Below are positions 4,620-11,959 of a stretch of DNA of 32,000 nucleotides, one piece after another. A program made the position numbers and the translations under genes. Every line of letters starts with the position of its first letter. Positions within the stretch are counted from its first letter, which is position 1. Source of the stretch: Candidatus Hermodarchaeota archaeon. GTDB taxonomy: Archaea > Asgardarchaeota > Heimdallarchaeia > Hodarchaeales > Hodarchaeaceae. The stretch is from contig JBHLKY010000019.1 of the NCBI GenBank assembly GCA_048886185.1, positions 62,239-94,238 of the forward strand, in the 5' to 3' direction. The notes below the pieces were generated by a model, which worked only from the letters and a program-made list of their open reading frames with translations, had not been told where the DNA came from and did no database searches.

Positions 4620-5318
4620 TCAGGAAGATTTTAACAGTTTTTGGTTTTCTATTAAATATTTTGGTCCAAATCCTTCTACTTGAGATAATGGACCTTCAAT
4701 TCCCTTTGGGTTTCCTGTTCTTGTGTATATTACCTTAGATTCAATAATTGCGTTTAGAATGTCAATTGGTTTCTCATTAAACGAATCAAGTAAAATTTCG
4801 GCCTTCTTTTGGCCCGTCTTATGAAGACCCTGTAAAAAATACAGCTGGTTATCCCTTAGCGATCGCTTTTTAGGTGATTTTCGCGCAATAATAGGATCAG
4901 CGTGTTCTTCTTGAACCCATGAGGCGATACGATTTAATGCGATAGCTGTCTCGCTCATTCGAGAAGTTGGGACAACTGGTACTTGGCGACGTAAAAAAAT
5001 ATAAGTCAAAGCACCATAAACATGCTTTTTTCTCTTCTTCCATTCAGTTCTTTCGAATGCTGAGGGCAAATTTTCTAATAATAAGATTGGTTGGTCATAG
5101 GTTTCAATTAATCGATCAATTTGTTCAAAAAGTCGATTATCCATTATAGACGTAATTAAGTCCAAACCTGTTTTTCTTTCACAAGCTACCTGATCAGATA
5201 AGATATAGTCAGCGACATCTAATTGTTGTTCTTCAACCTCCATACCAAATGTCACCAGTCTTTTCTTGAGTTTTTCAGGTTCCCGTTGATCAACTATGAT
5301 TTGTAAAGGCTGAGTCAT
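4620..5318 (-). CDS. xpf: Short XPF/ERCC4-family structure-specific endonuclease with C-terminal HhH motifs
   Basis: IIVDQRE, (G/A)DY (here ADY), ERK and LLLE nuclease motifs. HhH-like segments LQGLHKTGQKKAEILLDSF and QVEGFGPK. No helicase domain. Confidence 0.88.
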   Translation of the reverse strand: MTQPLQIIVDQREPEKLKKRLVTFGMEVEEQQLDVADYILSDQVACERKTGLDLITSIMDNRLFEQIDRLIETYDQPILLLENLPSAFERTEWKKRKKHVYGALTYIFLRRQVPVVPTSRMSETAIALNRIASWVQEEHADPIIARKSPKKRSLRDNQLYFLQGLHKTGQKKAEILLDSFNEKPIDILNAIIESKVIYTRTGNPKGIEGPLSQVEGFGPKYLIENQKLLKSS

Positions 5319-5351: not shown

Positions 5352-7736
5352 TTATAAGAGATAGCCCTTTTCTGACAGAGTTCTAGGTAACAAATTATTC
5401 TGAATCAAGGACTCAAAAATAATTCTGATGTCATTCCTAGAAATGTTTGTTTCACGACTGATTTCTTCCCAAGGGATTAACTTTCTTATTTGCATTTCAG
5501 GTTGCTTTACATAATCAATAACTTTACTAAGAGCCTTTTTTTGGGTCATTACTTTGTTTTTATCCAAAGAGATTATTAAATTGCTATCCTCTGAAATTAT
5601 TTCTCTAACTATCGTTTCATTTTTCTTATCTTTAATAATTTCAAGGATTTCTAAAAGCTCTTGGAGAGAAAATTCTTCCCTATATTCTATGATTCCTTGA
5701 ATTTCCTGATTAATGCCTTTTGAGGTTACAAACTCTCCCACTGCATTAGTAAATCCTCTGATAAAAAGGATATTTTCAACTATTTTATAAAGGATTTTTG
5801 GATTCAAATCTAATTTGAATCCTAGAACATTAAAATTGATTCTTCCTTGAGTTTGAATTTCTTTTTCAACTTTAGCTATCAAATCTTCAGTGAAGAAATA
5901 ATCAGTGTCAGGAGTAGTTCTACCGCTAAATTCTTGTGTGATAAAATCGAGAATAACTGGTTTTGTTGTGCTAGCTATTTTTCCAAATTTTACTTTTTGT
6001 AAGAATTCAGAGATAGAAAGATAGCCTTTACCAATGATATGTTGTTGAAGCTGTGGATGAAGATTCTCTAGAGTGATTAATTGTCCATCACTTGCTTGAT
6101 AGGTTTTTATATCCATTAATTTCTGTAGGCTTTGTAAGAATCTAGGAAATTCGATATTAATATGTTTTAAAAGATGAATTACTCTTGATTCATCAATTCC
6201 TGAGGAATTCTGTTCTAGTTTCTGAAATTCTGTTATTTCTAGAAAAACATTGATTTCTTCAAGCCATACCCCTTTAAACTTGTCTTCAACAATCTCTTTT
6301 AACGTGGAAATTTCGATTTTAGGATTTCCGATTTGAGTTATAAATTTCTTAAGCGAGACAATCTTATTACTTTCTATCTGATGTTTTAACTGAGTCTGTA
6401 GATATTCTTTTGTAAGGTATTCATTTTGAGAATTATACCATCCATCTTTTGATGGATTTAAAATTGGAATTAATTCTTTTTTAACTACATCATTAGATTT
6501 ATTGATCTCTGTTGCAATACTTGGAATTTGAAGAATTCCTGAGCTTTTAAATTCAGTAGAGATATTGTTAAAGCACTCTACTGTTAAATAAAGGTCTTGA
6601 TTAACTTGATGACTTTGTGGAATAGTGGAGATTAATTGCTTTAATATCTCTAGTGAAACCTGTCTGAAAGGATCTTTTTGTTTTATAGTTGGAATGTGAA
6701 TGGAGTTATTCTCTTCTAACTCTGTTATCAATAATCTCTTTAGACCTGTTTCTGTTAAATAAGTGTCATCAAAAAGAGGAATCAGCTTTAAGTTTAATAT
6801 TTTTGTAACTAATACCTTTATAGCAACTACATTGGACTGTAATTCCGCAGCAAGTTCTGATAAGACCAACCTGTCTTTTGCTATTAACCGTGTTTGGAGA
6901 TCTTTTATCGCAAAAGCCATTTGAGAAGTAAGGGAGGAGACTGATGAATCAAAGTTTTGTTTTGTTGTGTCGGTTCCATGTTGGAGTGAAGCGATTAAAT
7001 CAATTCTCCCTTTTGATATGACTTCAGACGTGATTTCCTGTTCATTTTTTTTAAGAAAAGCCGCTGCTGTTTCTCTAACATAGTCATTTGGGTCTACAAG
7101 GTTTTCTATAAATGGTAATATAAGTTCCCGTCCTCCCATATGTTCCAAGGCTGACCCTGCTTGATTACGTGTCCAATCATCATACCCAGGATTTCGCATG
7201 ATTTCAACAAGGGTGCCAATTGCTTTTGGTGTCTTTAACTTTCCAAGGGCATATATTATTGATCTGCGAAGACCACCAGTTTCTGATTTTAATAATTGCA
7301 ACAATTTTACTTCTACTCCCTCAATTTGGTGTGCAACAACAAGTTCCATTGCAGTCTTTCGAACCACCTCTGCCTGATCATTAAGACTTCTCATTACTTG
7401 TGGTTTAAGCTGGGGATGATTCTGTTTAGCAAGCCATTCAAGAGCTAATGACCGAATCCCTGGACTTGGATCTGAAAGTGCTGAAGAGACTAAAGATTCA
7501 ACTGTTTTTACGTCTGGAAGAGCTTCTATTAATGTTATTAGTGCTTTTTCTCTAATATTCTTCTCTGGAGCTTTAGTAAAAGGTAATAACGATTTGACGA
7601 TCATACGGAAGCGAAAATCCGCGGAATTTGGGTTTGCTTGTAAATATTTTTGCAGATTGTTTATTGAAGTCCATTTGAGATCGATATCCTTTGATTTAAG
7701 GCCTTTAAGATCATTCAATACGGATTCTTCGGACAT
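5352..7736 (-). CDS. HEAT-repeat protein with C-terminal tandem winged-helix (UFL1/PCI-like) repeats
   Basis: N-terminal HEAT repeats (DPSPGIRSLAL, DQAEVVRKTAM, DPNDYVRETAA). The C-terminal part has ~55-60-aa repeats starting [YF]-[LFV]-T. Likely start is the ATG at 7736 (MSEESVL), preceded by GTGAGTGGT; the ORF track extends to 7853. Confidence 0.75.
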   Translation of the reverse strand: MSEESVLNDLKGLKSKDIDLKWTSINNLQKYLQANPNSADFRFRMIVKSLLPFTKAPEKNIREKALITLIEALPDVKTVESLVSSALSDPSPGIRSLALEWLAKQNHPQLKPQVMRSLNDQAEVVRKTAMELVVAHQIEGVEVKLLQLLKSETGGLRRSIIYALGKLKTPKAIGTLVEIMRNPGYDDWTRNQAGSALEHMGGRELILPFIENLVDPNDYVRETAAAFLKKNEQEITSEVISKGRIDLIASLQHGTDTTKQNFDSSVSSLTSQMAFAIKDLQTRLIAKDRLVLSELAAELQSNVVAIKVLVTKILNLKLIPLFDDTYLTETGLKRLLITELEENNSIHIPTIKQKDPFRQVSLEILKQLISTIPQSHQVNQDLYLTVECFNNISTEFKSSGILQIPSIATEINKSNDVVKKELIPILNPSKDGWYNSQNEYLTKEYLQTQLKHQIESNKIVSLKKFITQIGNPKIEISTLKEIVEDKFKGVWLEEINVFLEITEFQKLEQNSSGIDESRVIHLLKHINIEFPRFLQSLQKLMDIKTYQASDGQLITLENLHPQLQQHIIGKGYLSISEFLQKVKFGKIASTTKPVILDFITQEFSGRTTPDTDYFFTEDLIAKVEKEIQTQGRINFNVLGFKLDLNPKILYKIVENILFIRGFTNAVGEFVTSKGINQEIQGIIEYREEFSLQELLEILEIIKDKKNETIVREIISEDSNLIISLDKNKVMTQKKALSKVIDYVKQPEMQIRKLIPWEEISRETNISRNDIRIIFESLIQNNLLPRTLSEKGYLL

Positions 7737-10313: not shown

Positions 10314-11084
10314 TTAGTGAGGGATGATTTCTTTTACCTGTTTAACCGTTTCAGACGCTTTAATAACAAGTTTCTCCAGTCCAGATGCGGGGTCTCCGTC
10401 AACATAAAGTAATAATCCCTCGCTAATTTTATAGGCAACTAAATTAGTCGCCTCTGAAGATACAACTAGATATCGTAAATTCCTCATATATGTTGAAACA
10501 TTTAAGAGACGAATAGCTCCCTCCATTCGTGTTTGATCCATTTTATATTCGAGTAGAATATCCCCAGTGAATGAAACAATCATGGCACCCCTTACTCCTA
10601 TGTTTTTTTGTTGGACTAATTTTTTCAGATAAAAGAGAGCAGCATTTTTTGAGCTAGTTAACATCTCACGAGTTTCACCCAAAAAGACTTCGTCAACATG
10701 ATTTTTGAATGGTTCAAATATATCTGTTTCAATAATTTGCATTTCTTCCGCCCGTGTTCCATATTCTGCTAAAAAAAGACTCGAAATAGTAGTTAATTTA
10801 AATTGTAAGTCTAATGGACTTACAAGAGGAGAAGCTAATATAGCGAACACTAATCCACCTCTTTCAATGAAGGAGAATCGGAGATCTGTCATATCAACAA
10901 CTTTCAAATCGCTCAATGATGTTGATTTAGCGAAAGTGAACATAGCTGTCAAAAAAGCTACTACTAGATGGGCATCTGGTGTTTTAGTATCATGAGTTTC
11001 GTAAGATCGCGTAAATAGTGTGTTTCCTGTTTCTTTTTCAAAAATGAAAAAAGCTTTTATTGTCTTGAATTTCTCTAAAGCCAT
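10314..11084 (-). CDS. Longin-domain protein with C-terminal roadblock-like domain
   Basis: Longin pattern FIFEKETGNTLFTRSY...DAHLVVAFLTAMFTFA...VVDMTDLRFSF...LVFAILA...FLAEY...FEPFKNHVDEVF. C-terminal GVRGAMIVSFTGDIL...LVAYKISEGLLLYV resembles roadblock/LC7. Confidence 0.72.
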   Translation of the reverse strand: MALEKFKTIKAFFIFEKETGNTLFTRSYETHDTKTPDAHLVVAFLTAMFTFAKSTSLSDLKVVDMTDLRFSFIERGGLVFAILASPLVSPLDLQFKLTTISSLFLAEYGTRAEEMQIIETDIFEPFKNHVDEVFLGETREMLTSSKNAALFYLKKLVQQKNIGVRGAMIVSFTGDILLEYKMDQTRMEGAIRLLNVSTYMRNLRYLVVSSEATNLVAYKISEGLLLYVDGDPASGLEKLVIKASETVKQVKEIIPH

Positions 11085-11099
11085 GTTGAACTGAACTCC

Positions 11100-11669
11100 T
11101 CATTCATCTAAGATATATTTCTTAGCTGTAAGATTTAAGATTCTGGTTGTCATAGTTTGAAAAGCCTCATTTACATTTTGTCCAGTTTTAGCAGAAGTTT
11201 CAACATAATCAATGACATGCATTGCTTTTTGGATTCTTTTTGTTTGAGAACTCGTAAATGCTCGTTCTTGCTTCAAATCCGCCTTATTTCCAATAAGGAT
11301 CGATAAACATTTTGGAGAAACTTTTAGAACTTGTGATTGCCACCTTTCTTGCATATTGAGAAGTGTTTCCCTACGGGTCAAGTCAAAAACATAAAACGCT
11401 CCAAGAGCTCCTTTTAAATAGAGATGTGAGTATGAAACATGCCTAGCCTGGCCAGCAATGTCCCATACTTGTAATGATACAGTCCGTTGTACATCTTTTG
11501 TATCAATAAACTTTACTGTTTTAGTAAGAAAATCAACTCCTAAACTCATGCTATATTCTTCTCGGAACTTATTCTCAATAAAGCGTAATATTAATGATGT
11601 TTTACCTACTGCCCCATCACCTAATAGTAATACCTTCAAAATATGTTTAATTTCTTTACCTTTAGCCAA
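11100..11669 (-). CDS. Rab-like small GTPase
   Basis: G1 GDGAVGKT, G2 region YSMSLGVDF, G3 WDIAGQ, G4 NKAD, G5 ETSAKT. Likely start is the TTG at 11669 after GGAGATGG; the extension to 11921 in the ORF track looks non-coding. No C-terminal Cys. Confidence 0.9.
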   Translation of the reverse strand: MAKGKEIKHILKVLLLGDGAVGKTSLILRFIENKFREEYSMSLGVDFLTKTVKFIDTKDVQRTVSLQVWDIAGQARHVSYSHLYLKGALGAFYVFDLTRRETLLNMQERWQSQVLKVSPKCLSILIGNKADLKQERAFTSSQTKRIQKAMHVIDYVETSAKTGQNVNEAFQTMTTRILNLTAKKYILDE

Positions 11670-11959
11670 ACTACCATCTCCAGCTTTAATGAGTGTCCCG
11701 AGACGATTAATGGAATTATAATAATAAAAGGAATATAGTGTGCACCATTTCAAAAGCTTTTCTTCGAATATTAAAAAGATAGTAACAGTAATAAAAAGGA
11801 ATGTTCGAATGTGAATAGGAAATATGGTATTTGCTTTATTGTGAAAAGCCAAAAAAAGAATCTCTGATCCTTCTCGATATTTCAAGGAAAAAATTTGATG
11901 AGTAGTCATGCAAATTCTCATAAAGCCTCTTATCTTAGTGCATAGAAGAATTTTTTAGG

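Follow-up and report, generated by a model that had tools for sequence, protein, structure and literature searches.

The window examined here is a 32,000-nt stretch of contig JBHLKY010000019.1 (positions 62,239 to 94,238, forward strand) from the genome of a Candidatus Hermodarchaeota archaeon of the order Hodarchaeales. The gene under study lies on its minus strand and encodes a protein, termed HEAT-WH9 below, in which HEAT repeats are followed by nine tandem winged-helix (WH) units. HEAT-WH9 is best read as a non-enzymatic, elongated docking scaffold that is UFM1-independent and lineage-specific and whose WH rod is remotely homologous to the arrays of UFL1 and DDRGK1; a probability of about 0.6 was assigned to this reading. 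The N-terminal solenoid of about eight HEAT repeats would offer a protein-binding surface, and the nine-WH rod would be joined to this head without a flexible linker. The WH units would be remote homologs of the UFL1/DDRGK1 arrays and, more distantly, of PCI-type winged helices, and the array would most likely position protein partners along a semi-rigid rod, as in UFL1/DDRGK1, rather than read nucleic acid. The whole may elaborate, within a single Hodarchaeales genus, on a WH-array module that has been shuffled between architectures in Asgard archaea. The gene is located as follows:

5352 to 7736, minus strand: gene for the HEAT + nine-WH protein, 794 aa, with its stop codon at 5352-5354

The minus-strand open reading frame (ORF) runs from 7853 to 5352 (833 aa), and its extension up to 7853 does not belong to the gene. 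A collection of 5.8 billion proteins yielded 27 homologs of 788-812 aa each. Because 27 of 27 align from the same MSEES start and have these lengths, the ATG at 7736 was taken as the right start, as had been proposed in a first-pass annotation of this DNA; the peptide strings quoted there were also all found in the translation. This ATG is preceded by an AT-rich box that resembles a TATA box and by a GGTG-like motif. The homologs are publicly annotated as “HEAT repeat domain-containing protein”, and a Pfam scan of the whole window protein returned HEAT repeats only, in the N-terminal third.

The remainder of the chain was modeled with AlphaFold2 using residues 262-794 and the 27-sequence alignment as input. 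The mean predicted local distance difference test score (pLDDT) of this model was 90.6 and its predicted template-modeling score 0.59; the same repeat was seen in a full-length model (pLDDT 88.7). In residues 274-794, DSSP assigned nine consecutive H-(b)-H-H-b-b units of 55-63 aa each, which bears out the earlier proposal of a tandem repeat of eight or nine winged helices with a period of about 55-60 aa. The protein is divided as follows (boundaries of the linker and the WH units from AlphaFold2 and DSSP):

6954 to 7736, minus strand: HEAT alpha-solenoid, aa 1-261 (from Pfam, DSSP of the full-length model, Foldseek and invariant columns)
6918 to 6953, minus strand: linker helix from HEAT to WH1, aa 262-273
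6753 to 6917, minus strand: WH1, aa 274-328, inside the hhalign match to the Asgard UFL1/DDRGK/PCI family described below
6582 to 6752, minus strand: WH2, aa 329-385, inside the same hhalign match
6411 to 6581, minus strand: WH3, aa 386-442, inside the same hhalign match, with an invariant G-W in the wing
6237 to 6410, minus strand: WH4, aa 443-500
6072 to 6236, minus strand: WH5, aa 501-555, a variant unit without the first strand
5889 to 6071, minus strand: WH6, aa 556-616, where the Z = 12.4 structural alignment to PDB entry 8b9x starts
5724 to 5888, minus strand: WH7, aa 617-671, with the highest conservation of all units (mean column identity 0.75)
5544 to 5723, minus strand: WH8, aa 672-731, with a family mean net charge of -7.7 and several invariant Glu residues
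5355 to 5543, minus strand: WH9, aa 732-794, a PCI/DDRGK1/RPA32C-like terminal winged helix

At the unit junctions, an aromatic-hydrophobic-Thr motif (YLT, YLT, YLT, LIT, FFT, FVT, VMT) runs into the next helix. When sub-profiles of single units were compared in hhalign, several pairs aligned in register and along the entire unit (WH1/WH7, E = 1.5e-4 over 52 columns; WH4/WH6, E = 2.2e-4 over 53; WH3/WH7, E = 5.7e-4 over 55). The probabilities of the unit-versus-unit comparisons were at most 52%, and the evidence for the repeat is thus mainly structural. The units, very diverged in sequence, would be ancient or fast-evolving copies; a recent internal tandem duplication was considered and rejected, as the units are too diverged from one another. 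Conservation across the family peaks in HEAT repeats 5-7 and in WH6-WH8. One residue of the wing of WH9 sets this copy apart: codon AGA at 5382-5384 (minus strand) specifies Arg785, and Gly785 is found in 27 of 27 orthologs. Contigs from three runs of the probable source study agree on the Arg785 codon, and a related strain from an estuary metagenome has GGA.

The N-terminal region belongs to the HEAT repeat proteins of the PBS-lyase type. Both Pfam cut-offs were passed (HEAT_2, 64.6 bits against 27.7; HEAT, 34 bits against 23.5), and the predicted fold is an alpha-solenoid of about eight such repeats, with 16 paired helices in residues 1-257 by DSSP of the full-length model. The best Foldseek matches of this part were alphaRep proteins, i.e. 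designed PBS-type HEAT repeats (E = 3e-7, 22-24% identity). These results confirm the HEAT region of the first-pass annotation. Its most conserved block is residues 155-230. A relationship to cullins or CAND1 was also considered and was rejected, as the Foldseek matches concerned were of low probability or arose from the generic HEAT solenoid.

The likeness of the WH array to UFL1 and DDRGK1 was seen by several methods. In Foldseek against the PDB, ranks 1-5 were all UFL1 chains (8ohd_A, E = 5.1e-8; 8qfc_B; 8b9x_B; 8b9x_A; 9gy4_E, E = 2.2e-6), followed by cullin-4 (E = 4.5e-4, probability 0.69) and SelB (E = 2.9e-3). VIA-align, which is independent of Foldseek, was run against 48,161 representative chains and placed the DDRGK1-UFL1 chimera 8b9x_B first with a Z score of 12.4 (233 of 255 residues, root-mean-square deviation (rmsd) of 9.1 Å, on WH6-WH9); the runner-up had a Z of 8.8. 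In the ESM Atlas, searched by shape and language-model features, UFL1 clusters also came first (an Asgard DDRGK/UFL1/PCI cluster and eukaryotic UFL1), with scores that qualify as leads only (template-modeling (TM) score at most 0.40 over 325 residues, cosine 0.81). The UFL1 repeat units named in the first-pass annotation (GKEYIT...GRVNI and GQLID...LQESGQVTI) are present in the sequence of 8b9x.

Sequence profiles led in the same direction. When 1.84 billion representatives were scanned in HMMER with the profile of the family, only the orthologs and a single outsider were returned, P0040 (E = 1.5e-5), which is a fragment of an Asgard family (f13) that combines zinc ribbons with a DDRGK/UFL1/PCI-like WH array. 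The hhalign comparison of the HEAT-WH9 family with this Zn-ribbon family gave 94.9% (E = 4.5e-8, 192 collinear columns covering WH1-WH3); the same profile against the tandem-WH protein Vps25 of the window's own genome, which served as a negative control, gave 0.2% (E = 0.32). When the WH parts of the 27 orthologs were compared with Pfam E3_UFM1_ligase (PF09743, gathering cut-off 23.2 bits), two exceeded the cut-off: P0026, with 31.8 bits (E = 1.5e-7, 160 residues on model positions 21-183), and P0029, with 24.1 bits. Among 24,736 Pfam families, this was the sole multi-domain collinear match. The structure searches, the profile comparison and Pfam agree, and the predicted array appears to be UFL1-like beyond generic winged-helix similarity. 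The description of the protein as HEAT repeats plus a UFL1-like WH array is therefore supported by the predicted structure, by two structure searches that do not depend on each other, by the comparison of profiles and by marginal Pfam matches, and the tandem winged helices and the top-ranking UFL1 chains are what the first-pass annotation had anticipated from AlphaFold and Foldseek.

Several observations weigh against this assignment. The window protein as a whole had no match to PF09743, and a fragment (aa 580-740 in ORF numbering) reached 17.9 bits (E = 0.0025), falling on WH6-WH7; the anticipated Pfam similarity to UFL1 was thus found in two orthologs but not, above the cut-off, in the window protein itself. 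No UFL1, DDRGK1 or PCI chain was found at E <= 10 when all PDB sequences were searched with phmmer and with the family profile in hmmsearch, the best match being eS25 (E = 0.35). Global TM-scores were low (0.25-0.40), and SelB arrays reached similar values, so part of the structural signal comes from having many consecutive WH domains. Moreover, the registers differ by method (WH1-3 by sequence, WH6-9 by VIA), as is expected for repeats, and a one-to-one domain correspondence with UFL1 is therefore not established. Net charge, used below, is likewise a crude argument against nucleic-acid binding.

Such points invite the explanation that HEAT-WH9 is a generic, independently expanded tandem-WH protein that resembles UFL1 without specific common ancestry, because no WH array in the PDB is longer than that of UFL1. 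Along with the low TM-scores, the near-equal performance of SelB and the sub-threshold Pfam score, this account could draw on the matches of single units to RPC82 HTH_9, RPA_C, TFIIE_beta, MarR and others, and on the nearly tied single-domain Z scores of PCI, BirA and Rrf2. It is nevertheless an improbable account, and four results speak against it: the uniqueness of the collinear E3_UFM1_ligase match, the separation of the Asgard UFL1/DDRGK family from Vps25 in hhalign, the fact that the exhaustive HMMER scan gave only this Asgard family outside the orthologs, and a Z score 3.6 units above those of all other chains.

The C-terminal unit had been called PCI-like, and its best single-domain VIA matches were indeed the PCI winged helices of COP9 signalosome subunits (CSN2, CSN4) and of proteasome-lid subunits (Z of 9.0-9.8, rmsd of 1.2-1.5 Å over 59 residues), with DDRGK1 at Z = 9.0. 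The label holds only in part, however, as the winged helices of BirA, Rrf2 and NiaR (Z of 8.3-8.6) were counted as tied with PCI, and IclR was also within about 1 Z unit. Pfam PCI (PF01399, cut-off 22 bits) had no match in the window protein, and the orthologs scored 16.8-20.6 bits on WH9, below the threshold. RPA_C was passed on WH9 by three orthologs (23-28.9 bits). A separate long protein of the same genome (G000:C7:53505-53699, L020) ends in a canonical PCI domain (40.5 bits) after helical repeats.

In spite of the likeness of its array, HEAT-WH9 is not a UFL1 ortholog. The UFL1 C-terminal domain, which binds ribosomes, had no match in the window protein at E <= 10 (Pfam UFL1 / UFL1_C), and the chain ends with WH9. 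The UFM1 pathway was searched for in the genome of the window, which is 96% complete with 5% contamination; the search covered UFM1, UFC1, UFSP and DDRGK. UFM1 (PF03671) and UFC1 (PF08694) had no match, and the DDRGK domain had none at E <= 0.1. UFSP/Peptidase_C78 (PF07910) was also without a match, a weak blank, as control genomes were without one as well. The profile of the Asgard UFL1/DDRGK family returned nothing from this genome either. Because the genome is without matches to UFM1, UFC1, UFSP and DDRGK, HEAT-WH9 would work independently of UFMylation. Of the UFM1-pathway genes for which a search had been proposed, UFM1 and UFC1 were thus looked for, and neither was found. The suggested relevance of the protein to the origin of UFMylation or of PCI complexes is correspondingly weak: besides the pathway and the UFL1 C-terminal domain, the N-terminal elements that bind UFC1 and DDRGK1 are missing. 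Another UFL1-like WH array is encoded on contig 27 of the same genome (G000:C27, L001:205-2952). This protein, P0030, is a 915-aa multi-pass membrane protein with a cytoplasmic tandem-WH array and C-terminal zinc ribbons, which scored 23.9 bits with PF09743 and 46% (E = 2e-4) in hhalign against the HEAT-WH9 family; it was rejected as a paralog of the HEAT-WH9 architecture, being a different WH-array protein.

Protein docking is favored over nucleic-acid binding by the neutral-to-acidic character of the WH units (family mean net charge per unit of -7.7 to +2.1; isoelectric point of the WH part 5.8). Winged helices mediate protein docking in UFL1/DDRGK1, in PCI proteins, in ESCRT-II and in cullins, and we infer the same for HEAT-WH9, together with a lack of enzymatic activity.

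The family has a narrow phyletic range. Besides the genome of the window, all 21 other genomes of the same GTDB genus had a match to the WH profile, with one full-length gene wherever the assembly was intact. No HEAT-WH9 gene was found in the two sister-family genomes (80-85% complete and fragmented) or in the other families of the class; five genomes had weak single-WH matches only, near E = 5e-4. The orthologs are constant in length and 38-70% identical along the whole protein, and the retention of one constant-length copy across the genus points to purifying selection. Given this narrow range and the weak direct similarity to UFL1, HEAT-WH9 was taken to be a side branch and not the UFL1 ancestor. 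The restriction to one GTDB genus also counts against a role in the origin of UFMylation, as does the far stronger resemblance of the published Asgard family to UFL1, DDRGK1 and PCI.

The next gene on the same strand encodes a nuclease:

4620 to 5318, minus strand: short-form XPF/ERCC4 nuclease, 232 aa (Pfam ERCC4, 78.4 bits), 33 nt downstream of the HEAT-WH9 stop

There is no obvious terminator in the 33-nt gap, and at orthologous loci XPF begins 26-37 nt after the stop, so the two genes are probably co-transcribed. The order M42 aminopeptidase, HEAT-WH9, short XPF is kept in all orthologous loci examined. The protein might be a DNA-repair scaffold or sensor that, through its WH array and HEAT head, attaches to DNA structures or repair proteins and recruits or controls the short XPF, just as nucleases of the XPF family in eukaryotes rely on partner scaffolds. 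The persistence of the pair at even the most diverged loci (38-42% identity) is compatible with this idea, as are the RPA_C matches of WH9, RPA_C being the protein-binding winged helix of RPA32. However, collinearity across the genus extends to the whole region, with an unrelated opposite-strand CoA-biosynthesis operon among its genes, and the proximity of HEAT-WH9 and XPF therefore does not count as independent evidence that they are functionally linked. In the sister family of the same order, where HEAT-WH9 was not found, the XPF ortholog (55% identity) has other neighbors: an ORF of 148 aa in the first genome and one of 408 aa in the second. The neutral-to-acidic character of the WH domains also counts against such a role. 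A repair function thus seems about as doubtful as independent expansion, and XPF is a candidate partner only.

Two further observations concern this locus. Only this order yielded the short form of XPF (232 aa), and the ERCC4 proteins in three other families of the class are about 780-840 aa long. In a 402-aa variant, P0036 (L042:155-1363), WH5-WH9 follow a partial TIR_2-like N-terminus (30 bits), and the synteny ahead of XPF is the same; its gene lies 155 nt from the contig end, where a real domain swap and a chimeric contig are indistinguishable.

The docking reading can be taken further, to a free-standing, UFM1-independent rod of the UFL1/DDRGK1 type, with a HEAT head, that organizes a multi-protein machine such as XPF with repair factors or the Asgard E2/ubiquitin machinery. 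This is a speculative extension, somewhat less probable than either of the alternatives above. If true, it would reveal the role that the UFL1 scaffold had prior to the recruitment of UFM1, and Hodarchaeales are the Asgard order proposed to be closest to eukaryotes. Least credible of all is a true E3-like scaffold for a ubiquitin-like conjugation system of Hodarchaeales, in which the protein would be a functional counterpart of UFL1 or of a cullin and would use either the ubiquitin and E2 proteins of Asgard archaea or a UFM1-like modifier that escaped detection. The protein's nearest relative by structure is indeed an E3 scaffold, the genome has at least four UQ_con E2 homologs and cullins occur among the weaker Foldseek matches, but the four UFM1-pathway components and the UFL1 C-terminal domain were not found, Pfam scans of the window protein showed no RING or cullin-homology domain, and there are no ubiquitin-system genes in the neighborhood.

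No description of a HEAT + nine-WH architecture was found in the literature. HEAT-WH9 is thus a new architectural variant, UFL1-like domains in Asgard archaea having already been published. E3 UFM1-ligase-like domains in Asgard fusion proteins were described by Liu et al. (bioRxiv 10.1101/2020.10.19.343400), and UFL1 and DDRGK1 are the two UFMylation components for which Picchianti et al. (PMC10183829) proposed an Asgard origin, predating UFM1, and a UFM1-independent function. As a scaffold, HEAT-WH9 would be a second, differently built example of a WH rod, with nine units and a HEAT head, in Hodarchaeales and in a genome where the UFM1 pathway was not found. Its universal retention in the genus and its good structure prediction make it tractable for work on the structure and the interactions of a WH-rod scaffold that is independent of UFM1.

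The Zn-ribbon family, of about 790 aa, is present in 35 of 40 genomes of another Asgard family and scores high in Pfam (E3_UFM1_ligase, 50-74 bits; DDRGK, 46.7-56 bits; PCI, 82-85 bits); its profile matches the 8b9x sequence with E = 2.7e-11. It is, by these sequence comparisons, a better candidate for the UFL1 ancestor than the HEAT-WH9 family. The Zn-ribbon proteins (L008-L019, alignment A3) are also collinear with the engineered chimera 8b9x, with profile positions 141-218 on DDRGK1 and 219-340 on UFL1, and look like natural single-chain DDRGK1+UFL1 proteins. Should they be such a natural fusion, the eukaryotic pair may stem from a split inside a winged helix. The Zn-ribbon architecture was noted earlier by Liu et al.; its collinearity with the chimera was not seen stated in the literature.

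Elsewhere in the window, two other loci contain small GTPases. At 10314-11921 (minus strand), a small GTPase of the Ras family (147.5 bits), extended at its N-terminus, precedes a protein of 256 aa that matched the longin domain Fuz_longin_1 faintly (E = 0.018); the two stand together at every orthologous locus and may form a GTPase-regulator module. At 26038-30080 (minus strand), the gene just downstream of a RagA/Gtr1-like GTPase (92.3 bits) encodes a 1022-aa HEAT/Cnd1-like + TPR protein, a second large eukaryote-like solenoid beside a small GTPase in the window.

Among known systems, the UFL1-DDRGK1 (UFBP1) scaffold (PDB 8b9x, 8c0d, 8ohd, 8qfc) is the best PDB structural match and is likewise a non-catalytic array. 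Head-to-tail winged helices of about 60 aa are common to both, and in both the wing strand (xY[IL]T) leads straight into helix 1 of the next unit. A single chain of the window protein carries nine complete WH units, whereas UFL1 has one partial unit and five more, and DDRGK1 has one and a partial one. At the N-terminus, UFL1 has a UFC1-binding helix and a partial WH completed by DDRGK1, where the window protein has a HEAT solenoid instead. The Zn-ribbon family is the nearest sequence relative outside the orthologs, also Asgard-specific, and has the WH-array module in common with HEAT-WH9; the similar total length is a coincidence. The members of that family start with zinc ribbons, have no more than about 4-5 WH units and continue into a long C-terminal region whose end is Vps28-like. 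The PCI subunits of the COP9 signalosome, the proteasome lid and eIF3 share the idea of helical repeats plus a winged helix, and WH9 superposes on their winged helices. In a PCI domain, however, one winged helix is packed on a helical (HAM/TPR-like) subdomain, while WH9 is preceded by WH8, and eight WH units separate it from the HEAT region, which lies 470 residues upstream. The C-terminal four-WH array of SelB (PDB 1lva, 2uwm, 1wsu) has a similar unit spacing, and two-unit superpositions gave Z scores of 8.5-8.8 over 106-113 residues. That array binds SECIS RNA and is joined to a translational GTPase; neither the SelB WHD nor the GTP_EFTU Pfam domain had a match in the window protein, the Foldseek E-values of SelB were about five orders of magnitude weaker than those of UFL1, and the similarity is at the level of the fold only. 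The N-terminal 260 aa, finally, resemble the PBS-lyase-type HEAT repeats of alphaRep (PDB 3ltj, 4zv6; target-normalized TM of 0.5-0.65), which are generic binding solenoids and carry no information on the partner of the window protein.

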